A stretch of 64,000 nucleotides of DNA from Oscillospiraceae bacterium (lineage in GTDB: Bacteria; Bacillota; Clostridia; Oscillospirales; Butyricicoccaceae): contig JAVBMB010000009.1 in NCBI GenBank assembly GCA_031552995.1, positions 1,345 to 65,344 on the forward strand, written 5' to 3'. The notes under the pieces were generated by a model, which had not been told where the DNA came from, made no database searches, and worked only from the letters and a program-made list of their open reading frames with translations. Both the position numbers and the translations under genes were made by a program. This document shows, piece after piece, positions 6,374-64,000 of this stretch; the stretch's first letter is position 1; every line of letters begins with the position of its first letter.

Positions 6374-9300
6374 ATGAAACGCAAGTTGTTAGCAACAATC
6401 CTGGCAGTTGTCATGGTATTTACACTGTTGCCTGCGACCGTAGTCGCGGCGGAAGACAATGACAACAATATAGCGCTTCCCGTATCATGGACGCGTTCGG
6501 AGAACGCCGCAAACGCCATAGCAGTCAACGGTGGTTTCGGCCTATCGCAGATTTATCAAACCCCTAACGTCAATATGACCGCCACATGGGCGGCGCTCAA
6601 CGCCATAGACGCGAACATCGAAGAAGGCGCCGACCCCCTGAACAACCGTGTTTGGGACGGCGGCAACCCCGATGCGGCCAATCACTACACCAACCAGCAC
6701 CTGCACGGCACATACACCGAGTACCCCACAGCGACAATCACCGGCGAGGGTACGACTCGCTTCCGGGGCACGTTCAGCCTTAAGGATCTGCTTGATGCGG
6801 GAACAACGCTTACAAACCTGAAGGTCGGCCTTTCCATGGAGGCAACCGACAACCAGCAGATTGCGCTTAACGATCAAATGTTTGTCTTTGTTTATCCGGC
6901 GGATGCCGTGATCGACGAGGCCAACTTTATGGACTACTATGTGTTCGGCGCGGGCTTCCAGTGGATCAACCAGTGGGTGCCGGAGGGCACAAGCGGCACT
7001 GTATCCTTTAACGGTGTCGACGTCGTACGCACATTCCGTGATTTTGGGTACTACCCCTCTTTCGGAGAGGAAGCCGCGGCTTATGAAGCATATGGTTCCT
7101 TGATCGAAGGGCTCGGCTATCCGGGTTGGCAGGGCATGACAGAGGGCTGGTTCGGCAATGGCGTTAACTATCGTCTCTACGATGATCTCGCCAATGGCGC
7201 GCTTACCGGCATAAACCACCTTTACGTCTCTGACGGTCTGTTCTTCCACAATTTTGACTCTCAGCTTGAAGTAGACCTTACCACAGGTTACGATACAATC
7301 CCGGAAAACTGGATAATCGACATATTCGCGGTGAACACCGACGTCGTCGGCGGCCTGTCCAAAATCGGCGTGTACGCAAACTGGGAACCGACCGTTACCA
7401 AGAACGGCGTCTTCTCATTACAGAAAATGGTTGAAGTTGCGGACGGATATGTTTCCGGTGAAGCCGGTTTCGTATTCAACGCCTATGCCGGAATCGATTC
7501 CGAGGGCAATCCCGTCGGCGACATCATTGCCACCGCAACAACAAATGATGCCGGTATCGCCAGTTTCAAGAGCGATGACCTTGTCCCCGGCGAGAAATAC
7601 TATGTCTTCGAAGCTATGGATGCCGACCAGAGCCTGATCTATATATTCGGCGCTCAGGGCGCGTATATCGAAATCGTCGCCCAGGAGGACGGCCAAACCG
7701 TAGTGGCGAAAGAGTTTTTCAACGACCTGATCCCCGGCACAGGCACACTTGTTATCGGCAAGGAACTTGGCAGAAAAGTCGATATCAGCGGCTCGATCAC
7801 CGGCGGTTATCCGGAAGAGGCCGTGCCGAATGCTAAAGGCAAATACGACCACTCTTCCTATAAACACAGCCTGAGCGTACTGAATAAGAACACCTGGTTC
7901 CAGTACAATGAGTTCAGCAACGGAAGCGGCGGCACATTTGACCTTGTGCAGGGCGACAAGTTGAAGGATGTCGGCGAATACACCATAACCGCTGAAGGCA
8001 ACGGTTGGTTCACAGTCAGCTTCCCCGACCTGATTGAGGCTGTCGGCGCTAGATTGTCGATATCCAATAAAATACTGGGGGCGAAGAACCAGAACGACAA
8101 GAATTACAATGCGAACAACATATGGACTACCTCACCCGGCCAGCAGCAGTTCTCGTTCAGCGGAAATTCATTCAGATTCTATGCTCCCTGGGTTAAAACA
8201 AACGAGACCGTTTATGTCTATTTGCACCTCGACGGTCTGACGGGCTACGCCGATACCTACCACGCGGAACCGGGGCAGACCTTTACGGTTTTGGTGACCG
8301 GCCCGAGTTTCCCCGATGGTAAAGAGTTTGAAGTTCCCATGAACAGCTCAATCAGGATTGAGAATCTTAAGCCCGGCACCTACACCATCGAGGAGCTCGA
8401 AGACGGGTGGAAGGCCACCTACTATGTAAACGGCTCGACTGTCGGTATTGAAGAGCGTTTCGTCGAAGTTATTGTTATCAAAGACGAAGTCACCACTGTT
8501 AAAATGACCAACGAACCCGGTGTATGGCCGAACGGAATATTTTCGATACAGAAGATGGTTGAAAATGTAGAATTGGGATATATAGCCGGTGATGCCGGCT
8601 TTGTATTCAATGCATACGCCGAAATAGACGCCGACGGCAATCCTGTCGGTAACATCATAGCCACCGCAACCACAGGCGCTGACGGCATTGCCAGATTCAA
8701 CAGCAAAGACCTTATCACGGGTAAGACCTATTATGTCTTTGAGGCCATGACACCCGAACAGGAACTGATTTATGTGTTCGGCGCTCAGGGCGCGTATATC
8801 GAAATTGTTGCCAAGGAAGACGGCGAGTTTGACACGGCGGAGGATTTCTTTAACGACCTTGCGTTCGGCTCCATCACGGTAACAAAAGCCGTTGAAGCCT
8901 ACAAAGATAAGGTGTACAGCGTTAACACCGTGACCGGCGGCGATGATGCCTCCGAAACGGTTGTGCAGGGCAGTTGGATGCGTCCGAAGTATATTGATGT
9001 CACCGCTATCCTCAACGGCACTCCCTTTGAAGCTAATCTGGTGGCGGGCTCCGATTTGACCCCGGTCGGCACTTACAGCATTTCGGCTGCCGGTGACGGC
9101 GGGCTTGTCGTGGAGCTCAAGTATGACGAGGGCGTTGAAGCAAACGCAATTACGTGGATAGTTTTCGGAAACGCATATGCGGGGCAGTCCCATAGCGGCG
9201 GAGGCCCTAACAGACCTGGACATTATGTCAGCTCTTCATTTGGAGAGAGTGTCACGATTCCGGCAGACGATGTTAAAGCGATGACGGATGCATCGGGCAA

Positions 9301-9616
9301 TATGCAGTACCTGTATCTGCACTCGGGCATTGGCGAGCAGACCGTGACCTTTGATATCTCTGATGAGTATGCCGATGTAGTATTTGATTTTGTCGTGACC
9401 GACAGCGACGGCAGCATTGTTGCGGAGTTCTCCTTAAAAGACGGTGAAAATTACACCGCTGCCGGTCTTGAGGCGGGTGAATACACCGTTACAGAAACAA
9501 CCACCGGTTGGACGACAACCTACAGCGTTGACAACGGCAAAGTTCTGGTCGTCGCCGGTGAGGACGCGCCCGTCACTGTAACAAACAAAACTGTTATTAC
9601 TGTCGTTGTAGTCTGA
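6374..9616 (+). CDS. large secreted surface-type protein with Cna-B/SpaA-like (prealbumin-fold) repeats and no LPXTG motif
   Basis: GGAGG lies 8 nt before ATG 6374, and the protein starts with a signal peptide (MKRKLLATILAVVMVFTLLPATVVAAED). Two domains of about 100 aa are near-duplicates (GVFSLQKMVEV...YIEIVAQEDG and GIFSIQKMVENV...YIEIVAKEDG). Two motifs are typical of Cna-B domains (IENLKPGTYTIEELEDGWKATY and AAGLEAGEYTVTETTTGWTTTY). The C-terminus is ...NKTVITVVVV. Confidence 0.75.
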   Translation: MKRKLLATILAVVMVFTLLPATVVAAEDNDNNIALPVSWTRSENAANAIAVNGGFGLSQIYQTPNVNMTATWAALNAIDANIEEGADPLNNRVWDGGNPDAANHYTNQHLHGTYTEYPTATITGEGTTRFRGTFSLKDLLDAGTTLTNLKVGLSMEATDNQQIALNDQMFVFVYPADAVIDEANFMDYYVFGAGFQWINQWVPEGTSGTVSFNGVDVVRTFRDFGYYPSFGEEAAAYEAYGSLIEGLGYPGWQGMTEGWFGNGVNYRLYDDLANGALTGINHLYVSDGLFFHNFDSQLEVDLTTGYDTIPENWIIDIFAVNTDVVGGLSKIGVYANWEPTVTKNGVFSLQKMVEVADGYVSGEAGFVFNAYAGIDSEGNPVGDIIATATTNDAGIASFKSDDLVPGEKYYVFEAMDADQSLIYIFGAQGAYIEIVAQEDGQTVVAKEFFNDLIPGTGTLVIGKELGRKVDISGSITGGYPEEAVPNAKGKYDHSSYKHSLSVLNKNTWFQYNEFSNGSGGTFDLVQGDKLKDVGEYTITAEGNGWFTVSFPDLIEAVGARLSISNKILGAKNQNDKNYNANNIWTTSPGQQQFSFSGNSFRFYAPWVKTNETVYVYLHLDGLTGYADTYHAEPGQTFTVLVTGPSFPDGKEFEVPMNSSIRIENLKPGTYTIEELEDGWKATYYVNGSTVGIEERFVEVIVIKDEVTTVKMTNEPGVWPNGIFSIQKMVENVELGYIAGDAGFVFNAYAEIDADGNPVGNIIATATTGADGIARFNSKDLITGKTYYVFEAMTPEQELIYVFGAQGAYIEIVAKEDGEFDTAEDFFNDLAFGSITVTKAVEAYKDKVYSVNTVTGGDDASETVVQGSWMRPKYIDVTAILNGTPFEANLVAGSDLTPVGTYSISAAGDGGLVVELKYDEGVEANAITWIVFGNAYAGQSHSGGGPNRPGHYVSSSFGESVTIPADDVKAMTDASGNMQYLYLHSGIGEQTVTFDISDEYADVVFDFVVTDSDGSIVAEFSLKDGENYTAAGLEAGEYTVTETTTGWTTTYSVDNGKVLVVAGEDAPVTVTNKTVITVVVV

Positions 9617-9642
9617 TAAAAAACAGGCAAATTCCAATATGC

Positions 9643-9676
9643 AGCCGGCAGGCTATCTCAGCCTGCCGGCTATTTT
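9643..9676 (+). terminator. rho-independent terminator
   Basis: AGCCGGCAGGC-TATCTCA-GCCTGCCGGCT forms a perfect 11-bp stem followed by ATTTT. Confidence 0.8.
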
Positions 9677-9707
9677 CCGAAATACACAGGCTCAGGAGGT
9701 TGTTAAA

Positions 9708-11972
9708 GTGCTAAAGCGAATATTTTCTTCTTTTCTTTGCGCAGTAATTGTGATTATGCTGTTTCCGGCTGTTCCGGCCATTGCTGCGGAGGATTTGGAA
9801 GGTGGGTATCTTGATGAAATCATCATTGGGTTCTATCCGCAATCTAATTTCCCCGGCAAGGAAAAGCAATATGACAGCGAGGTTGCAAAAGTCCTGAAAG
9901 ATGGGTTTGGTCTCGACAAGGTCAAGGAAAATGTCTATGTTGTAAAAGCGGAAGACTTGTCGAAAAATCCAACTGCCGTGCTGAATCGCTTTAAGAACAG
10001 CGAGTTCATAGAGTATGTGGAACCGAACTATATTGCCAAAGCCGAACTGATCCCAAACGACCCGGATTACAAGGTATATACTCAAAGAGGGTTTTCTTCC
10101 AAGAACCTTGAGGGCATGTGGGATGTCACGAACAGTGTCGAAACGGTTGTCGCGGTGCTCGACACAGGCGTTTATGCGGCGCATGGCGACTTGGTCGGGC
10201 GGGTTCTCTCCGGCTACGACTTTGTAAACAACAAAGCGGGAACCGCAAATGATGACAACGGTCATGGTACATGTGTCGCGGGGACAGTGGCCGCAAAGGG
10301 AAACAATGGTGTGGGCACCGCCGGTATCAACTGGGGGGCATACATACTGCCGGTAAAGGTTCTTGATTCCAAAGGCAATGGCTCTGTATCCAACATCGCA
10401 AAAGGCATCATGTGGGCCGCGGACAATGGGGCTAAAATAATCAATCTAAGCCTCGGAACGACTGTGGATTCAGTCACGCTAAAGGCCTCCATTGATTATG
10501 CGGCTACCAAAGGTTGCATCCTTGTTGCGGCGGCGGGCAACACAGGCAAGAATGTTGTAGAATACCCGGCGCGCTACAGCAATGTTATAGGGGTGGGCTC
10601 CGAGACGGGCGCGGGGGTTCGCGATCCAATAACCTGCTACGGCACCGGTCTCGATATTCTCACTATAGGCTCATACCGCACAACCACGATGGCGGGTGGC
10701 TACGGTACAGCGGCGGGTACCTCATTCTCCGCGCCGCAGGTGGCGGGCGTGCTGTCTCTCGCCCTCGATTATTATCCGAGTTTGGATATATACAGCGCGA
10801 AGGATTTGATTTCCGCCGCCGCCGTAGATGTCGGCGCAGCGGGCTGGGATGCGGACACCGGATATGGGTATCTTAACTTTATGCGCTTTATCGAGACTGC
10901 GATATCCCTCGGCACCGAACAAAAACCCGATGACAAAACGCCGCCGGTGCTCACATTAAAGGGTGAAACAGCGATTGAGCTTATCGAGGGCGACACATTC
11001 GTAGAACCCGGTTGGACGGTAACCGACGACACCGACGGCGACTTAGCGCATGCCGTTGTTGTTTCGGGCTCGGTTGCAACCGCTTATGAGGGGATATATA
11101 CGCTGAGCTACAAAGTGTCTGACAAAGCGGGCAACACTGCTACAGCATCACGTACCGTAACCGTATCTCCCTCGCCTGCTCCATCGATTGATGTGCCGAA
11201 ACCGCCTGTCATATCTCAAATAGGCTCCAATCCGATAATCCTTCATCTCGGCGGCAGCCCGTATACCGAGCAGGGCGCAAAAGCGTATGACGACATTGAC
11301 GGAGATATTTCACATCTTGTGACACAAAAGGGAAATGTCGACACTTCACGCGCGGGAACGTACCATGTGACGTATTCGGCCATAAACAGCGCCGGATTGG
11401 AAGCGTCGGTCACCCGTGAAGTGAGAGTGCTTGCGCCGCAGGAAAGATATTCCGACCGTACCCCGTACAGATTCAGCGATCAGGGCAAGTCGGGCTCATC
11501 ATTCATACACAATTTCATATCAGACGCTGACGGAACTGTTACCCTGTCTGTATCCGGCCTTAGCAAAACAACGATAACTGTCTCTATAAAAAGCGATGAC
11601 GGACGTCAGGTGTTTTGTGAGACTTTCAAAGGAAATTCTTCCAGAGACTTCTGGGCCGCGACCGGCTCGTATACGGTAACAATGTCTATAGATTCCGCAA
11701 ACGGCAATCAAAGAGTAGATTTATCCCTGCTGATGCCGGAAGAACTCTATGTATACTTCGCGGAGGAGGAAGTGCCGCTGCCCTCTTGGGATGCGGTATC
11801 AGGAACTACCTCCTATACAGTCGCAAGCGGCGACAATCTCTCCCGCATTGCTTACCGGCTGTACGGGGACAGCTCCCGCTGGCGCGAAATCTACGACATG
11901 AACAGAGCGGTTATCGGGGACAATCCAAACCTTATTTTTCCCGGCCAGGTGCTGACTGTTAATACAAAGTGA
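9708..11972 (+). CDS. secreted subtilisin-family (S8) serine protease with two Ig-like (DUF5011-type) domains and a C-terminal LysM domain
   Basis: AGGAGG lies 8 nt before GTG 9708, and a signal peptide follows (LKRIFSSFLCAVIVIMLFPAVPAIAAED). An I9-like propeptide is present. The catalytic motifs are VAVLDTGV (Asp), HGTCVAGTVAA (His) and GTSFSAPQVAGV (Ser). Two blocks resemble PPVL..G...IELIEGDTFVEPGWTVTDDTDGDL. The C-terminal LysM reads YTVASGDNLSRIAYRLYGDSSRWREIYDMNR. The upstream part of the track ORF (9639-9707) covers the terminator. Confidence 0.9.
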   Translation: MLKRIFSSFLCAVIVIMLFPAVPAIAAEDLEGGYLDEIIIGFYPQSNFPGKEKQYDSEVAKVLKDGFGLDKVKENVYVVKAEDLSKNPTAVLNRFKNSEFIEYVEPNYIAKAELIPNDPDYKVYTQRGFSSKNLEGMWDVTNSVETVVAVLDTGVYAAHGDLVGRVLSGYDFVNNKAGTANDDNGHGTCVAGTVAAKGNNGVGTAGINWGAYILPVKVLDSKGNGSVSNIAKGIMWAADNGAKIINLSLGTTVDSVTLKASIDYAATKGCILVAAAGNTGKNVVEYPARYSNVIGVGSETGAGVRDPITCYGTGLDILTIGSYRTTTMAGGYGTAAGTSFSAPQVAGVLSLALDYYPSLDIYSAKDLISAAAVDVGAAGWDADTGYGYLNFMRFIETAISLGTEQKPDDKTPPVLTLKGETAIELIEGDTFVEPGWTVTDDTDGDLAHAVVVSGSVATAYEGIYTLSYKVSDKAGNTATASRTVTVSPSPAPSIDVPKPPVISQIGSNPIILHLGGSPYTEQGAKAYDDIDGDISHLVTQKGNVDTSRAGTYHVTYSAINSAGLEASVTREVRVLAPQERYSDRTPYRFSDQGKSGSSFIHNFISDADGTVTLSVSGLSKTTITVSIKSDDGRQVFCETFKGNSSRDFWAATGSYTVTMSIDSANGNQRVDLSLLMPEELYVYFAEEEVPLPSWDAVSGTTSYTVASGDNLSRIAYRLYGDSSRWREIYDMNRAVIGDNPNLIFPGQVLTVNTK

Positions 11973-12008
11973 TCCTTTTCTCTCTTCTTCTGGCTAAAGA
12001 CATATTGC

Positions 12009-12333: not shown

Positions 12334-12999
12334 TCAACTTATACACCCTACAAAATTGTACTTGATTTGCACGGTCTCCATCCGTATGCCGCACTCATCA
12401 CTTTGTTCGTGGACGCTGATTTGGTCGATAAGCTGATAGGCTGTTGCCCGATCAAGCCTGTCGATGGTGACGCACTCTTTCATCAGGTTCATCCATCGCT
12501 GTATGTCGGCTCGGCTGTTCCGATTCTCCTGAATAAGCCTCCGCAGTTCAATCGCCGTTTCGTTTAGCTCGGCAATCTCTCGCTCGTAATCGGCAAACAT
12601 TTTCTTGAAAAGGCCGTCTGGCACGTTGCCTGTAATCTTTTCCTCAAACAACCTTTTGCTTGCGTCCTCAATAAACAATATGCGGCCTTTCGCGTCGCGC
12701 AGGGATTTTTCTCTCGCGACGGTTTCGTTCTTGTAAGCCTCGCCGGAAAACGCGAAAAGCCTGTCAAGAAGCCGCGCTCCATCCAATACCGCTGTTTTAG
12801 CGTGATGTTGGATGTCATGCAGGATAACGCTTTCAAGCACTTCAACATCAATCGTGTGCGTAGTACAGGATTTTGCACCATTGTTGGCGTAGCGGCTGCA
12901 ACGATAAAAGAGCTTTTCATCGCCGTTTTTGCGAACCTTGCGATTGAACGCCATACTGGCTATTAGGCAGAAAAACACGAAAAATCTCGGAGAACACAC
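12334..12999 (-). pseudogene. remnant of a large serine recombinase (zinc ribbon, coiled coil and DUF4368-like tail only)
   Basis: The translation contains LFYRCSRYANNGAKSCTTHTIDVEVLESVILHDIQ..., a coiled coil, and ...LDRATAYQLIDQISVHEQ...IKYNFVG, which is the C-terminal third of TnpX/TndX-type recombinases. The resolvase and recombinase domains are absent. The first ~15 codons of the track ORF look unrelated and start at GTG. Confidence 0.7.
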
Positions 13000-16738: not shown

Positions 16739-19700
16739 TTAGACTTCCGGATTGGCAATCAGCGTAGGCCTGCCGAGCGTGCCGATGGTGGCGGTATTCC
16801 ACACGCTCACCGTATTCCAGCCCAAGGAGGTAATGACGGCGAGCAGGCTGGACGGATCCATACTCTGGCCGTCAAGCCCGTTTGGATCACTGATCGGTGT
16901 AACCGGCACGCCGCCGGAGAGCAGGGTCATTGCGCTGCTCGCGTAATTCTGCGCTAGCGTCGCGCCGTTTACCAGCTGCCCGCAGACCCTGTGCACCACC
17001 CCGCCCGCGTTGGTGGCAACAGCTGAGGGACCCAGGGCGATGCTGCTTTGCATGCTGGCTGCGCCCACTGCGTTGTTCTCCAGAGCTCCTGCAAGACCGG
17101 CGACGGCGGAGGCGCCGGTGACAGAACCCGACGCATAGCAGCGGCTCACTATCGCGCCGAACCCATGGCCAAGCAGCGCGCCATACTGGACGCCGCTGCC
17201 GCTGCTGTTCCCGATGGCATAGCTGTCCCGGATGACTGTTGGGTTGGCGCACAGCCCCACCATTGAGCCGACCTCAGACTGCGCATTGACAATCACATTG
17301 CCGGTTGCAAAGCATTGATCAATAAGTCCATAGGCGCAGTTGCCGCTAAAACCGCCTGTGCCGTTGCCGCTTCCCGCTCCGCCGGTGCTGGTTACGTTGC
17401 CGCGTGCCTGGCACTGGAAAAATTGCAGCGAAGGATTTTGCGGGTCGGCCGGTGCGGGCGCGTCGGTGTTGCCGTTGAATCCGCCAATCCGAACAGCGGC
17501 TTGGGCATTGCCGCTGGCCCGGCAGCGAAGATACCTGGCGCCCGAAGTGCGGCCGACAAAGCCGCCGACTTCCTGCGTCGTGGCAGTCACGTTGGCGGTC
17601 GCGGAGCAGTCGGTCACGAACATAATCGGTGTTGTGGGTATCGGCGTGATGTTCTGCAGGCCGATGTGGCCGGCGAACCCACCGCTTACGCCTGCGGACG
17701 ATGGTCCATTCGCCGCTATCGCAGAGGCGCTTGAGTGGCAGTTTGTAACGTTGGTGGAGCCGCCGCCGGTCATGGCCTGCATTGCGCCGATCACGCCGCC
17801 CATGGACGCGGCTCGCCCGGTGACATCCACGCCGCAATTGATATTGGCGTAGCTGCTGCCGCCTGTACGCACTTCGATAGTGCCAAATGCGCCGCCCAGC
17901 CGGTTGTTTCCGAAAATCGCGCCGCTTTGCACCCCGCCGCCCGACATGGTAAGTGGGGCGGTCAGCGACGTAAAGCCGATGAGCCCGCCTTGATGCGCGG
18001 CGGTCGCAGGCGGATTGGGCTCATTGATTTGTATTTGCGTAACGACCAGATTCGTGAGGTTGGACGGGGCGCTGCACGCAAACATGCCGATGATGCCGCC
18101 GCAGTTAGCGGCAAAGAAGCGAAAGATGCCGGTTCCCACAAGGACATTTGACATTTGGTTCAGCCCCGCACTGACCAGACCGATCACGCCGCCCTGGTTT
18201 TGGGAGCCGGTGACCTCCGACTCTGTAACGGTCACGTCGCTGACTGCGGCCGTGGCCCCCGCTTGGTTGAGCAGGCCGATCAATCCGCCCGCGTTGACGG
18301 AGAACGATGTGAGCTCGGCGGTGACCAGCCGCATGGCGTTTATGCGCTCGACGGTAACCGCGCCTTCCAGCACACCGGCCATGCCGCCGATATATCCGAT
18401 GTTGCTGCCTGTGCCGGAGCGCCCGCCGGATGCCCGCCCCGGAGTGAGGGTGATGTCCCGGATAGCGCCGCCTTGCATATAACCCACCAGCGTACCGATT
18501 CTGCCGGTCTGCGCGGGGTCGGCAAAGCCGGTGAACAGGGCTTCAGAAAATGCGTTGGTGAGGGTGAGCCGCTCCAAGATAACTCCGCGCACCTGGCCGA
18601 ACAGTCCGCGCACCAGCACCGGGTTTTGGGGCGCGGCGGCGGCGTTGATGGTCAGATTGTCGATGACAGTGCCGCCCTGCGGAGTCCCCGCTATGCCGGT
18701 GAACACATGTTCGCCGGACAGCGGCGGCGTAATCAATCCAATATCCACGTTGCCGATGGGCCGCCAACCGTTGCCGCCCCAGGCAGATGAGTAGTTGGCC
18801 AAGTCGAATGCGCTGTCCAGGCTGTAGGTCAGCGACAGGCTGTCGGGCATGCCGTGCACGCCGCCTGTCTGGTCGTAAAGCACCTGCATGCCTTCGATAT
18901 TATCCAGAATGCGCGCGTTTTCCGTCACTCCCGCCCGGTTACCGGGGTACCCCTGCGTGAGATCGGGATAAAACGCCATCTCTGCCGGTGTGCACATGCG
19001 CACAAAGAAGGGATCGCCGGCGATGCCGTTGCCCGTGGCGAACGGCATGCCTATGGCCGACTCAAACAGCGTCAGAACGCCCGTTGACCGTCCCTCGCTG
19101 GTGACGCCCACCACATAAACGTTATAATTGAAGCCGTCCATAACGCCGGTCTCCATCGGCAGCGGGGTGATGTTCTCTTTTCCGGTCAGGGTGAAGGGAA
19201 AGGTTTGCGTGGCGGCGGTCAGCGCGCGCGCGAACCGGCCGCGCACCGCGTTACCGGTGGTCAGCGGCACAGGGTCGCTGTAGCCGATGACCTCCTCTGC
19301 GGTCGGCACGGGCTCTCCGGGGGTCAGCAGCAGATAATAGATGGAAAGTGTCGTGTCCGGCGAGGCGGAGCCGGTCATGACCATATCTACCGTCCTGAAT
19401 ACAGGACCGCGCACCAACGATATGAGATTCACGTTCAGGAAGCTGGTATCTACCGTGAATATTGAGAACGTGCGTGAAGCGTCCGTAGGATTGCAGAGCG
19501 CGCCCAACTGGGTCGCAACGACGGTATATGTGCCGTCCGGCAGGTCAGTCGGCGTCTGCACGCCCCACTCGCCATCCTCAAACAGCGCTGCAGTTTCACA
19601 AAACACGGTCGCGCCAAGACTGTTCTGCACGCACACCAGCACCTGGCTGCCCGGAATGCCGCGCCCCGCAATGGAAGGTCTTGAAGATGCGATTACCTCA

Positions 19701-20674
19701 TTTAGCTCCGGCAGGTCAATGGGCGGAGGCGGGCAGGCGGGGTAGATCACATCGAAGCAGGTTTCGTCCCGCGGCGGATTGGGGTCGTTACCGGCCGGGC
19801 AGCGGAGCACTGCCAGCACACAGTGGCGACCCTGCGTCCACGGTGGATTGGGTTCATAAATCCAGTTGCCGTTTGCGTCGATGGGCACCCGTCCGACCGA
19901 TACGCCGTCGACAAAGAGTTCAGCCTCGCAGCCGGGTTCCCCCGTTCCGGTGACAGGGTCCTCCGGGTCTGCGCTGCCGCCGTCCTCCGGCCCGGTGATT
20001 TGGATGCCCGGCACCTCAAAGCAACTGGTATCCTCAAGCGGAGGCGGACATGCGCACGCACATCGCAAGATCGCGCGCACACAATGGGTGCCTGTTTCCC
20101 AGGGGACGGGCGGCTGATAGACCCATCGCCCGCTTGGGTCGATGAATACTCGTCCGACAAAGATGCCGTCTCGATAAAGCTCCACTTCACAGCCGGGTTC
20201 CCCGGTACCGATAACGGGGGCTCCAGGATTGACGCTTCCGCCGTTCTGGGGGCTGGTAATGTGGATTTCCGTACCTTGCGCAACGCAAAAACATGATGTG
20301 TCTTCCGGCGGATTCCCTCTGTAGTCGCCAGGGCAGCGCAAGACTGCACGAACGCAATGCCGACCGCCATTCCATGGAACCGGGGGCTGATACAGCCAGT
20401 TCCCGCAGACATCAATGCAGACGGACCCGGAAAACCTTCCGTCAATGTACAAATCCGCACGGCAAAGGGGCGTGCCCTGCCCGGTGACCGGTTCTGTCGG
20501 GCTTGCATTGCTGCAGCTGCAGGGGCCGGTGATGCGAATAGTGTGGCAGGGATTACGGCTGCACGGCCGGCTAGGTGCAGGAACCGGGAAACGGAAGCAG
20601 GAGCCCCCGCAAGATGAACTTCTTAGGAATGACGGGGTATATGATGGAAAATAATTACTGAAGATCTCTTTCAT
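16739..20674 (-). CDS. giant GLUG-motif beta-helix protein with three N-terminal Cys-rich Ig-like repeats and no signal peptide
   Basis: The start was chosen at the ATG 6 nt after AGGAGG (MKEIFSNYF...). Three repeats of about 85 aa follow the pattern PV(T/I)G(Q/T)GEPGC...L(Y/F).DG...G.V.ID..G.W.Y.P..PW..G.HCV.A.LRC. After them come Ig-like segments and many GG(L/V/I)(I/V)G repeats (GGLIGLLNQ, GGVIGLVSAG, CGGIIGMFAC, GGLIGFTS, MGGVIGAMQ, VGGFVGRTSG, ...CFATGNV..., ...CYASGSVTG), which are characteristic of the GLUG motif. Confidence 0.8.
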   Translation of the reverse strand: MKEIFSNYFPSYTPSFLRSSSCGGSCFRFPVPAPSRPCSRNPCHTIRITGPCSCSNASPTEPVTGQGTPLCRADLYIDGRFSGSVCIDVCGNWLYQPPVPWNGGRHCVRAVLRCPGDYRGNPPEDTSCFCVAQGTEIHITSPQNGGSVNPGAPVIGTGEPGCEVELYRDGIFVGRVFIDPSGRWVYQPPVPWETGTHCVRAILRCACACPPPLEDTSCFEVPGIQITGPEDGGSADPEDPVTGTGEPGCEAELFVDGVSVGRVPIDANGNWIYEPNPPWTQGRHCVLAVLRCPAGNDPNPPRDETCFDVIYPACPPPPIDLPELNEVIASSRPSIAGRGIPGSQVLVCVQNSLGATVFCETAALFEDGEWGVQTPTDLPDGTYTVVATQLGALCNPTDASRTFSIFTVDTSFLNVNLISLVRGPVFRTVDMVMTGSASPDTTLSIYYLLLTPGEPVPTAEEVIGYSDPVPLTTGNAVRGRFARALTAATQTFPFTLTGKENITPLPMETGVMDGFNYNVYVVGVTSEGRSTGVLTLFESAIGMPFATGNGIAGDPFFVRMCTPAEMAFYPDLTQGYPGNRAGVTENARILDNIEGMQVLYDQTGGVHGMPDSLSLTYSLDSAFDLANYSSAWGGNGWRPIGNVDIGLITPPLSGEHVFTGIAGTPQGGTVIDNLTINAAAAPQNPVLVRGLFGQVRGVILERLTLTNAFSEALFTGFADPAQTGRIGTLVGYMQGGAIRDITLTPGRASGGRSGTGSNIGYIGGMAGVLEGAVTVERINAMRLVTAELTSFSVNAGGLIGLLNQAGATAAVSDVTVTESEVTGSQNQGGVIGLVSAGLNQMSNVLVGTGIFRFFAANCGGIIGMFACSAPSNLTNLVVTQIQINEPNPPATAAHQGGLIGFTSLTAPLTMSGGGVQSGAIFGNNRLGGAFGTIEVRTGGSSYANINCGVDVTGRAASMGGVIGAMQAMTGGGSTNVTNCHSSASAIAANGPSSAGVSGGFAGHIGLQNITPIPTTPIMFVTDCSATANVTATTQEVGGFVGRTSGARYLRCRASGNAQAAVRIGGFNGNTDAPAPADPQNPSLQFFQCQARGNVTSTGGAGSGNGTGGFSGNCAYGLIDQCFATGNVIVNAQSEVGSMVGLCANPTVIRDSYAIGNSSGSGVQYGALLGHGFGAIVSRCYASGSVTGASAVAGLAGALENNAVGAASMQSSIALGPSAVATNAGGVVHRVCGQLVNGATLAQNYASSAMTLLSGGVPVTPISDPNGLDGQSMDPSSLLAVITSLGWNTVSVWNTATIGTLGRPTLIANPEV

Positions 20675-21826
20675 AAACATCCTCCTAAACAATCTTCTCG
20701 AAAGTGATTGAAATCTCACTTAAAAAGCATATGCATTAAAACATGTGCTTATTTATGCTTAAAGGCTTTGTTACATTGCAGATATAGGGTATTTGCCTTG
20801 TCCTTATTGTCTGATTGGGATTCTTCGTTATATACAGAGAGCAGTACCAGAATCCGTCCCCAAAGCTGGATTCTGCATCCTGTCAGTCTTCGATTTTACC
20901 GATATACTATACCGGGATGCCGGCCTTATGAAAATATCATTTTCATAAGTGCTGCACACTGAAAGCTTTTACTTTTGGAGGGTATCTGGGCCTCAACATC
21001 TCTTACAACTTCTGTTCACTATTCTTCACGTCTAATATTGGTCATAAAATCGCCATACATTGTATAATATGTCGATTGATAGCTTTGGTTACGCCATGTG
21101 TCATTTTGGGTGGCCGGACTGCCCGAGTGAAACAGACTGCAGACCATTTGAGCTTATCTAAAAACAAAGACGCCTGGATTTATCCAGACGTCTGGTGTTG
21201 CTTTTATCCTCACTGAATGGCAGGCGGGATGCGCGATGCAACTGTCCTGCAATATAAGTGTCTCAGTCAAAGCAATAGCGACCAGCCGAGATTTTCTTCG
21301 GTCTAGCCGCTAAGTGTTCTTTCATGCCCTATAATCCGGCAGATTAGATTGCATATCCGAGCTTACAAATTAGTTAGATACGGGGGATGGAGCTTAAAGC
21401 CCTATGTGGTTAATATTCGGCTCAAACATCAATCCTGTTGTTTTTTTGGCATTAGAGTCATTTGGGCTATCCTTGCCGAATACGCTGCAGATGGGTGCTG
21501 TGCTTGTGTGGCAAAATTCCACCCTGTCAGATGATATGCTCCAGGTATGCCTGCAGGGTTGCCCGCCCGTCGTACCGCCCGCGTTAGACTAAATGCCCAT
21601 GCATTGCAATACGGGATTGTGAAATATCCGCGAAAATGCTAAACTGGCATTGTCATGTCGCCGCTTGCGGCAGCGCAGGGCCGATCTGTTTGCGCGCGAC
21701 GGCCTGCTAATGACATTTTTGTATTGGAAATGACCTGCGCTGTTGCGTTGAAGCTTTGACAGGCGGAGGAGTCAGGTCATTTGCGACCATCAGCAGCAGG
21801 CATGTGAATGTGAACGGAGTGTGGAG

Positions 21827-31906: not shown

Positions 31907-31982
31907 GCTGGTGTAGCTCAGCAGGTAGAGCAGCTGATTTGTAATCAGCAGGTCGGGGGTTCAAATCCGTCCACCAGCTCCA
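31907..31982 (+). tRNA. tRNA-Thr (anticodon UGU)
   Basis: I folded the cloverleaf by hand. The acceptor is GCTGGTG/CACCAGC, the D arm GCTC/GAGC, the anticodon stem GCTGA/TCAGC with loop TTTGTAA, and the T loop TTCAAAT. CCA is encoded. The T stem has one G:G mismatch. Confidence 0.8.
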
Positions 31983-32012
31983 TTTTTCAAACACAACTCA
32001 ATATAGATATGG

Positions 32013-32097
32013 GGGAGCGTTCCCGAGTGGCCAAAGGGGGCAGACTGTAAATCTGTTGTCAGTGACTTCGGTGGTTCGAATCCACCCGCTCCCACCA
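32013..32097 (+). tRNA. tRNA-Tyr (anticodon GUA), class II with a long variable arm
   Basis: The acceptor is GGGAGCG/CGCTCCC, the anticodon loop CTGTAAA, and the T arm GGTGG-TTCGAAT-CCACC. CCA is encoded. Confidence 0.88.
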
Positions 32098-34751: not shown

Positions 34752-35972
34752 ATGGTTAAGCTTGAGAGTATTGCACCGTACGAGCAGGAGATAATCGAGA
34801 TATTTAAGCAGATTCATATGCATCCCGAGCCGGGTTTTTTTGAGTTCAACACGGCAGCCCTGATAAAGGAAAAGCTGCGCGCATGGGGGCTTGATGTGAG
34901 GGAAAACCTGGCCATGACCGGCGTTATGGGCGTGCTTGATACCGGAAAGCCGGGGCGGACGGTACTGCTGCGCGCCGACATGGACTGCCTGCCGGTTATT
35001 GAGGCCAGCGGCGTGGAATACTGCTCTCAGTCGCCGGGGTTGATGCACGCGTGCGGGCATGACACGCATGTGGCGATGCTGCTGGGGGCGGCGAAATATA
35101 TGTCGGAGCACCCGGACGAATTGTGCGGAAAGGTGAAGTTTGTATTTCAGCCTGCCGAGGAGGGCACGACCGACAGCAGGAAGGCCGAGGTCGCCGAGCT
35201 TGGGCTGGGGACAACCGACGGTGCGCAGATTATGATTGCGCAGGGCGTGGCTGACGGAGTCGACGCATGCTTTGCAATCCATATCGATTCTACATCACCT
35301 GTCGGCACGGGTAAGGTGTGCCGCAAGGAAGCGATGGCGTCCGCGGATCAGTTTGACTTTGTGATTAAGGGAACCGGCGGGCACGGCTCGTCGCCGCAGA
35401 CGGCGACAGACCCCGTGAGCGCGGCCGCCGTGGCCATTCAAACGATTAATCTTATTCCGGCGCGCAGCGTGTCGGCGTTTGACCAGTGTGTCATCAGCAT
35501 CGGAACGCTGGAGACGCCGGGGTCGCGCTGGAATATAATTCCGGCGAATGTCCGCGCCGGCGGCACGGTGCGCACATTTAATGACGAGGTGCGCAAAAGG
35601 ACATTTGAGCTTATCGAGCAGCGTGTGGCGGATGCCGCAAAGACGTTCGGGTGCGAGTATGAGTTTAAGCTGACACCATACTACGCGCCGACAGTGAATG
35701 ACCCCGATGTGGCGGCGCTTGTGCTGGAAACCGGCCGCGAGCTGATGGGCGAAGGGATGGCATATGCCGAGTCGCCGAGCATGGGCGGTGAGGATGTCGG
35801 GTATTTCTTCCGCAAGGCGCCGGGCGCTTTGATGATGCTGGGCGGCAGCTTTAAGAATGACCCGAAGCCGGCGACGCTGCACAGCCCATATGTGAGGATT
35901 GACCCTTCGGCGCTTAAATATGGAGTCGCGATGCACGTGAATATGTGTATCAAACTGACAAAGCCGTTGTGA
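34752..35972 (+). CDS. M20-family amidohydrolase (aminoacylase/hippuricase-type, M20D)
   Basis: The translation contains LLRADMDCLPV...HACGHDTHVAMLLGAAKYM...VKFVFQPAEEG...GGEDVGYF, which are the characteristic metal-ligand blocks of the family. Confidence 0.9.
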   Translation: MVKLESIAPYEQEIIEIFKQIHMHPEPGFFEFNTAALIKEKLRAWGLDVRENLAMTGVMGVLDTGKPGRTVLLRADMDCLPVIEASGVEYCSQSPGLMHACGHDTHVAMLLGAAKYMSEHPDELCGKVKFVFQPAEEGTTDSRKAEVAELGLGTTDGAQIMIAQGVADGVDACFAIHIDSTSPVGTGKVCRKEAMASADQFDFVIKGTGGHGSSPQTATDPVSAAAVAIQTINLIPARSVSAFDQCVISIGTLETPGSRWNIIPANVRAGGTVRTFNDEVRKRTFELIEQRVADAAKTFGCEYEFKLTPYYAPTVNDPDVAALVLETGRELMGEGMAYAESPSMGGEDVGYFFRKAPGALMMLGGSFKNDPKPATLHSPYVRIDPSALKYGVAMHVNMCIKLTKPL

Positions 35973-36344
35973 GTTGCCGTGAACGCTCCGTTTGCGCGGT
36001 GCGCCGCGCCGTGACAACAAAAAGGCAGTGCCGAGGCACTGCCTGAGGTTGCCTGAAAACCCTGCGGGGTTTCAGGCATTTAGCCGGTCCCGCCTGCGGG
36101 CAGGATTTCGCCCATTTTATGCGTAATAATGGCAGGTTAAGGTGATTTTCCACGGACATGTCCGTGGAAAATCACCTTAACCTGCCATTATTACGCATAA
36201 AATGGGCGAAATCCTGCCCGCAGGCGGGACCGGCTAAATGCCTGAAACCCCGCAGGGTTTTCAGGCAACCTCAGGCAGTGCCTCGGCACTGCCTTTTTGT
36301 TGTCACGGCGCGGCGCACCGCGCAAACGGAGCGTTCACGGCAAC

Positions 36345-37565
36345 TCACAACGGCTTTGTCAGTTTGATACACATATTCACGTGCATCGCGACTCCATATT
36401 TAAGCGCCGAAGGGTCAATCCTCACATATGGGCTGTGCAGCGTCGCCGGCTTCGGGTCATTCTTAAAGCTGCCGCCCAGCATCATCAAAGCGCCCGGCGC
36501 CTTGCGGAAGAAATACCCGACATCCTCACCGCCCATGCTCGGCGACTCGGCATATGCCATCCCTTCGCCCATCAGCTCGCGGCCGGTTTCCAGCACAAGC
36601 GCCGCCACATCGGGGTCATTCACTGTCGGCGCGTAGTATGGTGTCAGCTTAAACTCATACTCGCACCCGAACGTCTTTGCGGCATCCGCCACACGCTGCT
36701 CGATAAGCTCAAATGTCCTTTTGCGCACCTCGTCATTAAATGTGCGCACCGTGCCGCCGGCGCGGACATTCGCCGGAATTATATTCCAGCGCGACCCCGG
36801 CGTCTCCAGCGTTCCGATGCTGATGACACACTGGTCAAACGCCGACACGCTGCGCGCCGGAATAAGATTAATCGTTTGAATGGCCACGGCGGCCGCGCTC
36901 ACGGGGTCTGTCGCCGTCTGCGGCGACGAGCCGTGCCCGCCGGTTCCCTTAATCACAAAGTCAAACTGATCCGCGGACGCCATCGCTTCCTTGCGGCACA
37001 CCTTACCCGTGCCGACAGGTGATGTAGAATCGATATGGATTGCAAAGCATGCGTCGACTCCGTCAGCCACGCCCTGCGCAATCATAATCTGCGCACCGTC
37101 GGTTGTCCCCAGCCCAAGCTCGGCGACCTCGGCCTTCCTGCTGTCGGTCGTGCCCTCCTCGGCAGGCTGAAATACAAACTTCACCTTTCCGCACAATTCG
37201 TCCGGGTGCTCCGACATATATTTCGCCGCCCCCAGCAGCATCGCCACATGCGTGTCATGCCCGCACGCGTGCATCAACCCCGGCGACTGAGAGCAGTATT
37301 CCACGCCGCTGGCCTCAATAACCGGCAGGCAGTCCATGTCGGCGCGCAGCAGTACCGTCCGCCCCGGCTTTCCGGTATCAAGCACGCCCATAACGCCGGT
37401 CATGGCCAGGTTTTCCCTCACATCAAGCCCCCATGCGCGCAGCTTTTCCTTTATCAGGGCTGCCGTGTTGAACTCAAAAAAACCCGGCTCGGGATGCATA
37501 TGAATCTGCTTAAATATCTCGATTATCTCCTGCTCGTACGGTGCAATACTCTCAAGCTTAACCAT
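36345..37565 (-). CDS. mirror copy of the M20-family amidohydrolase (34752-35972)
   Basis: The translation in the ORF track is identical, and the coordinates sum to 72317. Confidence 0.9.
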   Translation of the reverse strand: MVKLESIAPYEQEIIEIFKQIHMHPEPGFFEFNTAALIKEKLRAWGLDVRENLAMTGVMGVLDTGKPGRTVLLRADMDCLPVIEASGVEYCSQSPGLMHACGHDTHVAMLLGAAKYMSEHPDELCGKVKFVFQPAEEGTTDSRKAEVAELGLGTTDGAQIMIAQGVADGVDACFAIHIDSTSPVGTGKVCRKEAMASADQFDFVIKGTGGHGSSPQTATDPVSAAAVAIQTINLIPARSVSAFDQCVISIGTLETPGSRWNIIPANVRAGGTVRTFNDEVRKRTFELIEQRVADAAKTFGCEYEFKLTPYYAPTVNDPDVAALVLETGRELMGEGMAYAESPSMGGEDVGYFFRKAPGALMMLGGSFKNDPKPATLHSPYVRIDPSALKYGVAMHVNMCIKLTKPL

Positions 37566-40219: not shown

Positions 40220-40304
40220 TGGTGGGAGCGGGTGGATTCGAACCACCGAAGTCACTGACAACAGATTTACAGTCTGCCCCCTTTGGCCACTCGGGAACGC
40301 TCCC
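40220..40304 (-). tRNA. mirror copy of tRNA-Tyr (GUA)
   Basis: This is the reverse complement of 32013-32097, checked in the sequence. Confidence 0.88.
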
Positions 40305-40334
40305 CCATATCTATATTGAGTTGTGTTTGAAAAA

Positions 40335-40410
40335 TGGAGCTGGTGGACGGATTTGAACCCCCGACCTGCTGATTACAAATCAGCTGCTCTACCTGCTGAG
40401 CTACACCAGC
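40335..40410 (-). tRNA. mirror copy of tRNA-Thr (UGU)
   Basis: This is the reverse complement of 31907-31982, checked in the sequence (TGGAGCTGGTGGACGG... at 40335). Confidence 0.8.
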
Positions 40411-59188: not shown

Positions 59189-59317
59189 TTTATCTCCTTT
59201 CGAAACATTCCATGGGACAGTGTGAGCAATTTCCGTAATTATATCACACTTTTTTATCATATGCGGCACAGTTAGCAAAAAAATAGCATCTATGATTTCG
59301 GGAAACAAAATATTTTT

Positions 59318-60344: not shown

Positions 60345-62609
60345 TCACTTTGTATTAACAGTCAGCACCTGGCCGGGAAAAATAAGGTTTGGATTGTCCC
60401 CGATAACCGCTCTGTTCATGTCGTAGATTTCGCGCCAGCGGGAGCTGTCCCCGTACAGCCGGTAAGCAATGCGGGAGAGATTGTCGCCGCTTGCGACTGT
60501 ATAGGAGGTAGTTCCTGATACCGCATCCCAAGAGGGCAGCGGCACTTCCTCCTCCGCGAAGTATACATAGAGTTCTTCCGGCATCAGCAGGGATAAATCT
60601 ACTCTTTGATTGCCGTTTGCGGAATCTATAGACATTGTTACCGTATACGAGCCGGTCGCGGCCCAGAAGTCTCTGGAAGAATTTCCTTTGAAAGTCTCAC
60701 AAAACACCTGACGTCCGTCATCGCTTTTTATAGAGACAGTTATCGTTGTTTTGCTAAGGCCGGATACAGACAGGGTAACAGTTCCGTCAGCGTCTGATAT
60801 GAAATTGTGTATGAATGATGAGCCCGACTTGCCCTGATCGCTGAATCTGTACGGGGTACGGTCGGAATATCTTTCCTGCGGCGCAAGCACTCTCACTTCA
60901 CGGGTGACCGACGCTTCCAATCCGGCGCTGTTTATGGCCGAATACGTCACATGGTACGTTCCCGCGCGTGAAGTGTCGACATTTCCCTTTTGTGTCACAA
61001 GATGTGAAATATCTCCGTCAATGTCGTCATACGCTTTTGCGCCCTGCTCGGTATACGGGCTGCCGCCGAGATGAAGGATTATCGGATTGGAGCCTATTTG
61101 AGATATGACAGGCGGTTTCGGCACATCAATCGATGGAGCAGGCGAGGGAGATACGGTTACGGTACGTGATGCTGTAGCAGTGTTGCCCGCTTTGTCAGAC
61201 ACTTTGTAGCTCAGCGTATATATCCCCTCATAAGCGGTTGCAACCGAGCCCGAAACAACAACGGCATGCGCTAAGTCGCCGTCGGTGTCGTCGGTTACCG
61301 TCCAACCGGGTTCTACGAATGTGTCGCCCTCGATAAGCTCAATCGCTGTTTCACCCTTTAATGTGAGCACCGGCGGCGTTTTGTCATCGGGTTTTTGTTC
61401 GGTGCCGAGGGATATCGCAGTCTCGATAAAGCGCATAAAGTTAAGATACCCATATCCGGTGTCCGCATCCCAGCCCGCTGCGCCGACATCTACGGCGGCG
61501 GCGGAAATCAAATCCTTCGCGCTGTATATATCCAAACTCGGATAATAATCGAGGGCGAGAGACAGCACGCCCGCCACCTGCGGCGCGGAGAATGAGGTAC
61601 CCGCCGCTGTACCGTAGCCACCCGCCATCGTGGTTGTGCGGTATGAGCCTATAGTGAGAATATCGAGACCGGTGCCGTAGCAGGTTATTGGATCGCGAAC
61701 CCCCGCGCCCGTCTCGGAGCCCACCCCTATAACATTGCTGTAGCGCGCCGGGTATTCTACAACATTCTTGCCTGTGTTGCCCGCCGCCGCAACAAGGATG
61801 CAACCTTTGGTAGCCGCATAATCAATGGAGGCCTTTAGCGTGACTGAATCCACAGTCGTTCCGAGGCTTAGATTGATTATTTTAGCCCCATTGTCCGCGG
61901 CCCACATGATGCCTTTTGCGATGTTGGATACAGAGCCATTGCCTTTGGAATCAAGAACCTTTACCGGCAGTATGTATGCCCCCCAGTTGATACCGGCGGT
62001 GCCCACACCATTGTTTCCCTTTGCGGCCACTGTCCCCGCGACACATGTACCATGACCGTTGTCATCATTTGCGGTTCCCGCTTTGTTGTTTACAAAGTCG
62101 TAGCCGGAGAGAACCCGCCCGACCAAGTCGCCATGCGCCGCATAAACGCCTGTGTCGAGCACCGCGACAACCGTTTCGACACTGTTCGTGACATCCCACA
62201 TGCCCTCAAGGTTCTTGGAAGAAAACCCTCTTTGAGTATATACCTTGTAATCCGGGTCGTTTGGGATCAGTTCGGCTTTGGCAATATAGTTCGGTTCCAC
62301 ATACTCTATGAACTCGCTGTTCTTAAAGCGATTCAGCACGGCAGTTGGATTTTTCGACAAGTCTTCCGCTTTTACAACATAGACATTTTCCTTGACCTTG
62401 TCGAGACCAAACCCATCTTTCAGGACTTTTGCAACCTCGCTGTCATATTGCTTTTCCTTGCCGGGGAAATTAGATTGCGGATAGAACCCAATGATGATTT
62501 CATCAAGATACCCACCTTCCAAATCCTCCGCAGCAATGGCCGGAACAGCCGGAAACAGCATAATCACAATTACTGCGCAAAGAAAAGAAGAAAATATTCG
62601 CTTTAGCAC
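60345..62609 (-). CDS. mirror copy of the S8 protease with Ig-like and LysM domains (9708-11972)
   Basis: The translation is identical, and the coordinates sum to 72317. Confidence 0.9.
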   Translation of the reverse strand: MLKRIFSSFLCAVIVIMLFPAVPAIAAEDLEGGYLDEIIIGFYPQSNFPGKEKQYDSEVAKVLKDGFGLDKVKENVYVVKAEDLSKNPTAVLNRFKNSEFIEYVEPNYIAKAELIPNDPDYKVYTQRGFSSKNLEGMWDVTNSVETVVAVLDTGVYAAHGDLVGRVLSGYDFVNNKAGTANDDNGHGTCVAGTVAAKGNNGVGTAGINWGAYILPVKVLDSKGNGSVSNIAKGIMWAADNGAKIINLSLGTTVDSVTLKASIDYAATKGCILVAAAGNTGKNVVEYPARYSNVIGVGSETGAGVRDPITCYGTGLDILTIGSYRTTTMAGGYGTAAGTSFSAPQVAGVLSLALDYYPSLDIYSAKDLISAAAVDVGAAGWDADTGYGYLNFMRFIETAISLGTEQKPDDKTPPVLTLKGETAIELIEGDTFVEPGWTVTDDTDGDLAHAVVVSGSVATAYEGIYTLSYKVSDKAGNTATASRTVTVSPSPAPSIDVPKPPVISQIGSNPIILHLGGSPYTEQGAKAYDDIDGDISHLVTQKGNVDTSRAGTYHVTYSAINSAGLEASVTREVRVLAPQERYSDRTPYRFSDQGKSGSSFIHNFISDADGTVTLSVSGLSKTTITVSIKSDDGRQVFCETFKGNSSRDFWAATGSYTVTMSIDSANGNQRVDLSLLMPEELYVYFAEEEVPLPSWDAVSGTTSYTVASGDNLSRIAYRLYGDSSRWREIYDMNRAVIGDNPNLIFPGQVLTVNTK

Positions 62610-62700
62610 TTTAACAACCTCCTGAGCCTGTGTATTTCGGAAAATAGCCGGCAGGCTGAGATAGCCTGCCGGCTGCATATTGGAATTTGCCTGTTTTTTA

Positions 62701-64000
62701 TCAGACTACAACGACAGTAATAACAGTTTTGTTTGTTACAGTGACGGGCGCGTCCTCACCGGCGACGACCAGAACTTTGCCGTTGTCAACGCTGTAGGTT
62801 GTCGTCCAACCGGTGGTTGTTTCTGTAACGGTGTATTCACCCGCCTCAAGACCGGCAGCGGTGTAATTTTCACCGTCTTTTAAGGAGAACTCCGCAACAA
62901 TGCTGCCGTCGCTGTCGGTCACGACAAAATCAAATACTACATCGGCATACTCATCAGAGATATCAAAGGTCACGGTCTGCTCGCCAATGCCCGAGTGCAG
63001 ATACAGGTACTGCATATTGCCCGATGCATCCGTCATCGCTTTAACATCGTCTGCCGGAATCGTGACACTCTCTCCAAATGAAGAGCTGACATAATGTCCA
63101 GGTCTGTTAGGGCCTCCGCCGCTATGGGACTGCCCCGCATATGCGTTTCCGAAAACTATCCACGTAATTGCGTTTGCTTCAACGCCCTCGTCATACTTGA
63201 GCTCCACGACAAGCCCGCCGTCACCGGCAGCCGAAATGCTGTAAGTGCCGACCGGGGTCAAATCGGAGCCCGCCACCAGATTAGCTTCAAAGGGAGTGCC
63301 GTTGAGGATAGCGGTGACATCAATATACTTCGGACGCATCCAACTGCCCTGCACAACCGTTTCGGAGGCATCATCGCCGCCGGTCACGGTGTTAACGCTG
63401 TACACCTTATCTTTGTAGGCTTCAACGGCTTTTGTTACCGTGATGGAGCCGAACGCAAGGTCGTTAAAGAAATCCTCCGCCGTGTCAAACTCGCCGTCTT
63501 CCTTGGCAACAATTTCGATATACGCGCCCTGAGCGCCGAACACATAAATCAGTTCCTGTTCGGGTGTCATGGCCTCAAAGACATAATAGGTCTTACCCGT
63601 GATAAGGTCTTTGCTGTTGAATCTGGCAATGCCGTCAGCGCCTGTGGTTGCGGTGGCTATGATGTTACCGACAGGATTGCCGTCGGCGTCTATTTCGGCG
63701 TATGCATTGAATACAAAGCCGGCATCACCGGCTATATATCCCAATTCTACATTTTCAACCATCTTCTGTATCGAAAATATTCCGTTCGGCCATACACCGG
63801 GTTCGTTGGTCATTTTAACAGTGGTGACTTCGTCTTTGATAACAATAACTTCGACGAAACGCTCTTCAATACCGACAGTCGAGCCGTTTACATAGTAGGT
63901 GGCCTTCCACCCGTCTTCGAGCTCCTCGATGGTGTAGGTGCCGGGCTTAAGATTCTCAATCCTGATTGAGCTGTTCATGGGAACTTCAAACTCTTTACCA
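62701..64000 (-). CDS. mirror copy of the 3' part of the Cna-B-like secreted protein gene (8317-9616), cut by the window end
   Basis: The translation matches the C-terminal 425+ aa of the 6374-9616 product. The ORF is still open at base 64000. Confidence 0.75.
   Translation of the reverse strand, partial: GKEFEVPMNSSIRIENLKPGTYTIEELEDGWKATYYVNGSTVGIEERFVEVIVIKDEVTTVKMTNEPGVWPNGIFSIQKMVENVELGYIAGDAGFVFNAYAEIDADGNPVGNIIATATTGADGIARFNSKDLITGKTYYVFEAMTPEQELIYVFGAQGAYIEIVAKEDGEFDTAEDFFNDLAFGSITVTKAVEAYKDKVYSVNTVTGGDDASETVVQGSWMRPKYIDVTAILNGTPFEANLVAGSDLTPVGTYSISAAGDGGLVVELKYDEGVEANAITWIVFGNAYAGQSHSGGGPNRPGHYVSSSFGESVTIPADDVKAMTDASGNMQYLYLHSGIGEQTVTFDISDEYADVVFDFVVTDSDGSIVAEFSLKDGENYTAAGLEAGEYTVTETTTGWTTTYSVDNGKVLVVAGEDAPVTVTNKTVITVVVV

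Follow-up and report, generated by a model that had tools for sequence, protein, structure and literature searches.

A spacer-free perfect palindrome with arms of at least 27.8 kb in a Clostridia-type contig, most probably a fold-back artefact

The window, meaning the whole stretch of 64,000 bases that was analysed, begins with a left flank (1-8316, plus strand) that carries serine recombinases and a sigma factor with an RsgI-like anti-sigma factor, and in which a surface protein gene begins. This flank continues the same locus as the left arm of a palindrome (8317-36158, plus strand), in which the genes described here were annotated. Scans with Pfam and PHROGs assigned to the arm SpaA-type, Big_13 and SLH surface proteins, an S8 protease, GNAT, a DAO/Rieske oxidoreductase, a histidine kinase, NUDIX, HTH regulators, YbaK, RpiR, and an M20 amidohydrolase. 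The total comes to about 20 protein genes and two tRNA genes, tRNA-Thr(TGT) and tRNA-Tyr(GTA), which lie at 31907-32097 on the plus strand. The M20 amidohydrolase gene (34752-35972, plus strand; PF01546 and PF07687) is the last one ahead of the axis of the palindrome. Judged from these genes, the mirrored DNA is ordinary chromosome of an uncultured Clostridia-type bacterium.

Among the substantial ORFs of 1-36158, Pfam and PHROGs recognized no telomere resolvase, replication initiator, partition gene, or phage structural gene, and the gaps between the annotated genes of this interval hold no further ORF longer than 110 aa. When the 10 kb adjoining the axis was compared with plasmids and phages, the matches were limited to the tRNA genes.

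The preliminary description of this DNA had reported an exact palindrome with arms of at least 27.8 kb and no spacer, together with identical mirrored ORFs. Both statements were confirmed by a scripted base-by-base comparison of the full arms, in which each base x in 8317-36158 was paired with base 72317-x. The left arm is the exact reverse complement of the right arm (36159-64000, minus strand), with mismatches at 0 of the 27,842 pairs, and the palindrome occupies 55,684 of the 64,000 bases of the window (87.0%). The two arms abut without a spacer at an axis between 36158 and 36159, where the sequence reads TTTTCCACGGACA up to the axis and TGTCCGTGGAAAA beyond it. The centre of symmetry itself (36149-36168), composed of TCCACGGACA followed directly by TGTCCGTGGA, is unique in the window. 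A chance origin is ruled out by 27,842 consecutive complementary pairs.

The mirrored ORFs are identical in the two arms, and so are the tRNAs. Thus, the second tRNA pair, at 40220-40410 on the minus strand, and the duplicated ORFs, including the second M20 amidohydrolase gene at 36345-37565 on the minus strand, result from the mirror, and the two tRNA pairs are mirror images of each other, not paralogues.

The outer boundary at 8317 is set by the end of the window alone, because the partner of base 8316 would be base 64001; the earlier statement that the right arm terminates for this reason was therefore correct. If the left flank has a mirror partner, its position would be 64001-72316, past the end of the window. 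Furthermore, a 1085-aa ORF at 6359-9616 crosses 8316/8317 uninterrupted, indicating that 8317 does not mark a biological boundary.

The axis falls in noncoding DNA, 186 bp beyond the stop codon of the M20 gene and 47 bp beyond the last of three stem-loops. These stem-loops, detected by a terminator scan and by folding, span 36023-36111 and include a terminator-like hairpin at 36023-36044; the fold of 35960-36158 has an energy of -87.6 kcal/mol (z = -3.7). None of the natural stem-loops is centred on the axis, the nearest being 47 bp away. No repeats were found near the axis in the window, an axis-proximal 24-mer has no second copy within the window, and on neither strand does a long open frame reach the axis. 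The axis lies at an unremarkable, biologically arbitrary intergenic point. SMRTbell, ONT, Nextera, and TruSeq adapter sequences are absent both at the centre and throughout the window, so that the sequencing technology cannot be inferred from the sequence.

Two very short possible C-terminal ends occur near the axis on the minus strand, terminating in VRGKSP and in CPWKITLTCHYYA, respectively, each followed by a stop codon. There is also a possible RBS-plus-ATG at the axis, which, like both C-terminal ends, is too short to judge. The central ACATGT/CATG was considered as a restriction or ligation site and proved uninformative, because any even palindrome is centred on some 4- or 6-bp palindromic site.

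Other information was obtained from database comparisons of the M20 protein. An entry that is 100% identical to it (P0001) is recorded in one NCBI contig only, 75,004 bp in length, and the next homologue after this entry is 56% identical. On the strength of the identical protein, the 75,004-bp contig is presumably the source of the window, in which case the palindrome would account for at least 55,684 of its 75,004 bp, or 74%. The length of this contig is even, and the palindrome possibly makes up all of it, as two halves of 37,502 bp.

When the genome, viral, and metagenome collections were queried with an axis-adjacent 27-mer, none yielded an exact match, and a protein-guided scan of genomes did not find the same organism elsewhere. 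Neither an independent assembly nor a close relative that reveals the true continuation past 36158 was found. The synteny in relatives was also considered as a guide to the DNA that follows the M20 gene. It is uninformative for this genome, because the closest M20 homologues are 53-56% identical, reside in differing neighbourhoods, and have downstream genes that are unlike one another.

The explanation favoured here, with a probability of about 90%, is that the contig is an artefact consisting of a sequence X and then its own reverse complement, with the fold-back having arisen in sequencing or assembly. The preliminary description had likewise preferred a fold-back artefact over biology, and this preference is borne out by the identical arms, the zero spacer, the ordinary chromosomal genes, the unremarkable intergenic axis, and a palindrome that covers at least 74% of the presumed contig. 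In the artefact reading, the real DNA most likely comprises the left arm and 1-8316 only, and the right arm is most likely absent from the DNA of the organism. The window resembles known artefact contigs of this type in its exact mirror halves, the lack of a spacer, and its content of ordinary genomic DNA, as well as in the palindrome filling most or all of the presumed contig. It differs from the usual ones in that its arms, of at least 27.8 kb, are unusually long and that its centre contains no adapter remnant. The latter point counts against an artefact, as a raw template-complement or missing-adapter read usually leaves such a remnant.

The events leading to such a contig most likely started from a true continuation past about 36158 that was absent or thinly covered. 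One or a few fold-back reads would then have provided the palindromic junction; candidates for these reads are a nanopore template-then-complement read-through, an inverted chimera formed during amplification or ligation, and reads over a short natural palindrome. Where X ends, a self-mirror edge or overlap would have led the assembler on into the reverse complement of X, with the same consensus being output twice. The emission of one consensus twice would explain why mismatches and spacer are both zero. A route at the level of the assembler would give exact identity and no spacer without invoking a 56-kb fold-back molecule or converging polishing. Because a full palindrome of 75 kb is long for a single fold-back read, assembler-level doubling is the preferred form of the artefact. 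Both SPAdes and MEGAHIT are known to emit palindromic unitigs in full, through a self-mirror graph edge (PMC9528984), and in ligation-based nanopore libraries 0.18-7.33% of the reads are inverted-repeat chimeras (PMC13141652).

The inverted chimeras produced by MDA, through template switching during phi29 strand displacement, are similar to the window in that a sequence is joined to its own nearby complementary strand, and they, too, result in palindromic long reads and in assemblies with inverted duplications. However, typical MDA inverted junctions, as Lasken and Stockwell are said to have described in 2007, join nearby but different positions and so possess a unique central segment, whereas the offset here is exactly zero. 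The lack of a spacer is for this reason more readily reconciled with the assembler route, or with template-complement read-through on a nanopore, than with a raw MDA junction. Palindromic long reads that originate from whole-genome amplification have been reported to cause inverted duplications in assemblies (10.1101/173872). The palindromes treated in PMC4487206 are natural Streptomyces telomeres only, and not PacBio palindromic artefacts.

Two biological origins were weighed against the artefact. According to one of them, the axis would be the covalently closed hairpin telomere of a linear replicon, or a replicated-telomere junction, and reads that rounded the tip would have been assembled as an inverted duplication. 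The window shares with resolvase-made hairpin telomeres (Borrelia ResT, phage N15 TelN, Agrobacterium TelA, and Ca. Phytoplasma mali) a perfect symmetry up to the turnaround with zero spacer, but the artefact predicts the same, and this feature does not discriminate between them. In long-read assemblies, hairpin telomeres likewise appear as inverse duplications, theirs being located at the contig end; for Borrelia telomeres in nanopore assemblies these duplications measure 5-18 kb (10.1101/2025.07.18.665644), a range exceeded by the arm of at least 27.8 kb found here. Moreover, instead of capping a long unique contig, the palindrome would fill 74% or more of the presumed one. Hairpin ends are known in one Firmicutes-lineage organism, Ca. 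Phytoplasma mali, in a study that also used the snap-back renaturation assay for covalently closed ends (PMC2459194), and a literature search on hairpin telomeres in Clostridia returned this phytoplasma paper only. The DNA that adjoins the axis consists of a metabolic gene and its terminators, just past which the axis falls, instead of telomere-like repeats, and a second copy of the putative half-site was not found within the window. If the 75,004-bp contig represented a hairpin-ended replicon of 37.5 kb, the part left unseen would amount to 1,344 bp, too small to hold a resolvase together with a replication gene. The hairpin telomere, which the preliminary description had offered as the biological alternative, gained no support and is regarded as very unlikely; the 36,158 bases up to the axis lack the resolvase, replication, partition, and phage genes. 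The chance is just as slight that a linear chromosome or plasmid of a Clostridia-type gut bacterium ends at the axis in a covalently closed hairpin, the resolvase being encoded elsewhere in the genome. To our knowledge, hairpin telomeres have not been described in Clostridia, and such an end, if true, would be the first.

The other origin, judged even more improbable, is an inverted duplication that truly arose in the cell, too recently for mutations to have built up, either by break-repair fold-back, as a symmetric tandem-inversion duplication, or as a palindromic extrachromosomal amplicon. In line with an artefact, bacteria that possess SbcCD do not stably maintain long perfect palindromes. 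It is also well established that spacer-free palindromes of tens of kilobases are rapidly cleaved or remodelled in bacteria, which speaks against this origin. In its favour, strong stem-loops able to seed a fold-back are present 47-135 bp from the axis, and PMC3315005 describes the formation in E. coli of palindrome-centred inverted duplications under the control of SbcCD and RecA. Nevertheless, a fold-back primed by a hairpin keeps the loop as an asymmetric centre, whereas both the spacer and the divergence are zero here and none of the stem-loops coincides with the axis. The gene content gives no hint of selection for amplification, and the rearrangement would have to predominate in the sample for it to be assembled.

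If the contig is an artefact, as favoured here, the region 36159-64000 is a duplicate of 8317-36158 and should be removed, the left arm being the copy to retain as the real locus; otherwise, all of the genes of the arm are counted twice. A right arm that is retained inflates the estimates of duplication and contamination, creates false paralogues and false inverted repeats, and also introduces a false GC-skew switch at 36 kb. The public 75-kb contig probably carries the fold-back error. The junction would be of biological interest only if it is physically real, as a hairpin-ended linear replicon in Clostridia.

The full-arm complementarity check proposed in the preliminary description, in which each base x in 8317-36158 was compared by script with base 72317-x, returned no non-complementary pair among 27,842, so the exact, spacer-free palindrome claimed there is borne out in full. 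The axis lies between 36158 and 36159, at the centre ...GGTTAAGGTGATTTTCCACGGACA/TGTCCGTGGAAAATCACCTTAACC..., with no unpaired spacer, and 55,684 of the 64,000 bases of the window are palindromic. As was also recognized there, the arm ends only through the end of the window: because position 8316 would pair with 64001, outside the window, the left limit is set by the window and not by the sequence, and an ORF of 1085 aa (6359-9616) crosses 8316/8317 uninterrupted. The GC-skew reversal seen at 36 kb, the second tRNA-Thr/tRNA-Tyr pair across the axis and all of the "duplicate" ORFs are automatic results of the mirror. Gene duplicates across the axis are rightly treated as a single locus, and 36159-64000 should be regarded as a duplicate of 8317-36158 and be removed.

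Though real in the sequence, the palindrome is most likely not a feature of the organism (probability about 0.9). The fold-back artefact already preferred, that is, a contig consisting of a sequence X followed by its reverse complement, is favored because it explains simply and together the zero divergence over at least 27.8 kb, the zero spacer and a palindrome that presumably accounts for most of its contig or the whole of it. When every k-mer is doubled, as some de Bruijn-graph assemblers do, palindromic unitigs can be built via a self-mirror edge, and SPAdes and MEGAHIT have been shown to emit such unitigs in full (PMC9528984). One consensus X would be written forwards and then as its own reverse complement, and exact identity without a spacer would follow from this double emission; an analogous self-overlap may occur in long-read graphs. 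The turning junction might derive from inverted-repeat chimeric nanopore reads, which represent 0.18-7.33% of nanopore reads in ligation libraries (PMC13141652), or from amplification-induced palindromic molecules, which are documented (10.1101/173872). It could also come from a short palindrome that occurs naturally where coverage is missing. The route taken by this contig is inferred: typical MDA junctions reportedly leave an offset (Lasken and Stockwell, 2007), so the zero spacer favors assembler doubling or polished template-complement read-through over a raw MDA junction.

The axis position is without any biologically special mark. It falls in non-coding DNA, 186 bp downstream of the stop codon of an M20 amidohydrolase gene (34752-35972, plus strand), the last gene before the axis. 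The 199-nt tail (35960-36158) folds at -87.6 kcal/mol (z = -3.7) and has three stem-loops within 36023-36111; the axis is centred on none of them and lies 47 bp past the last. On neither strand does a long reading frame reach the axis, no repeats were seen flanking it, and neither further copies of the central 20-mer or an axis-proximal 24-mer nor, at the centre or elsewhere, sequencing-adapter sequence occurs in the window. The hairpin at 36023-36044 (9-bp stem, preceded by an A-run and followed by a T-run on the minus strand) reads as a minus-strand terminator, an orientation that hints at a convergent minus-strand gene just past the axis in the real genome.

Pfam scans of the substantial ORFs in 1-36158 gave, in window order, three consecutive large serine recombinase ORFs (1-3252; one cut by the window start, a short one with 168 aa and a full one with 541 aa), a sigma-70-type factor with an RsgI-like anti-sigma factor (4077-5952, the latter at 4819-5952), the 1085-aa SpaA/prealbumin-fold surface protein, an S8 subtilase with Ig-like and LysM domains, an SLH-domain protein, a 1326-aa Big_13 protein (16739-20719, minus strand), a GNAT acetyltransferase, a DUF1835/DUF3658 protein, a DAO/Rieske oxidoreductase, a histidine kinase, a NUDIX hydrolase, two HTH regulators, a YbaK-type tRNA-editing protein, tRNA-Thr and tRNA-Tyr, an RpiR/SIS regulator and the M20 amidohydrolase. 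An N-terminally truncated recombinase remnant with Zn-ribbon and DUF4368 (12334-12999) lies on the strand opposite to the recombinase ORFs. The intervening stretches are free of ORFs longer than 110 aa. PHROGs matches were limited to generic HTH regulators and two families of unknown function near the axis, and similarity to plasmid or phage DNA was confined to the tRNA genes, with Vescimonas and Subdoligranulum as the best such matches. The mirrored DNA is ordinary chromosome of a Clostridia-type, probably Oscillospiraceae-like, bacterium.

The M20 enzyme is 100% identical to a single record (P0001), which lies on an NCBI contig 75,004 bp in length; in a search of about 5.8 billion protein clusters the next homologue reached only 56% identity, the closest homologues sit in unrelated gene neighborhoods, and an axis-adjacent 27-mer was absent from collections of genomes, viruses and metagenomes. 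Should this contig be the source, the palindrome would occupy at least 74% of it; its even length (2 x 37,502) fits an end-to-end palindromic contig with 1,344 bp per arm beyond the window. M20 relatives at 53-54% identity repeatedly adjoin a 2-oxoacid_dh-like gene, which in two loci is itself accompanied by an AMP-binding gene; neither neighbor is seen here.

It is very improbable that the axis is the hairpin telomere of a linear replicon, the alternative raised previously. Resolvase-made hairpins do give a perfect palindrome up to the tip, but Pfam and PHROGs revealed no telomere resolvase, replication initiator, partition system or phage module among the substantial ORFs of 1-36158, the window has no second half-site, and the putative end is directly adjoined by a metabolic gene and its terminators. 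In nanopore assemblies, true Borrelia telomeres take the form of inverse duplications, 5-18 kb long, at the ends of contigs (10.1101/2025.07.18.665644), whereas the arm here is longer, at least 27.8 kb, and the palindrome dominates its presumed contig instead of capping a long unique one. Hairpin ends are present in one organism of the Firmicutes lineage, Ca. Phytoplasma mali (PMC2459194). Were the whole 75-kb contig a 37.5-kb hairpin-ended replicon, its unseen 1.3 kb would be too small for both resolvase and replication functions. Less probable still is that the inverted duplication is real and arose in vivo very recently: if a natural hairpin had seeded fold-back repair, its loop would remain at the centre and make it asymmetric. 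Spacer-free palindromes of tens of kb are not known to be tolerated by bacteria with SbcCD-type nucleases. Scientific interest in the fold-back is low unless read-level or physical evidence shows the junction in DNA.

Between the recombinase ORFs and the recombinase remnant, an integrated mobile element might have carried in the genes for the sigma and anti-sigma factors, the SpaA-type surface protein and the S8 protease as its cargo. Inside the anti-sigma factor gene, a 48-bp tandem repeat (5568-5936; about 7.7 copies, 82-86% matches) encodes a C-terminal tail of low complexity made up of GNNSGGESSGNPNAGS-type repeats. The 1085-aa surface protein gene has a 249-nt internal direct duplication (7445-7693 and 8576-8824, 78% identity), corresponding to two repeated protein modules. 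The 1326-aa ORF lies in a locally GC-rich stretch (57-62% versus 53% overall); Big_13 is the one domain that Pfam recognizes in its product, in which several repeated modules at the N-terminal end contain cysteine and the C-terminal part is long, repetitive and rich in glycine.
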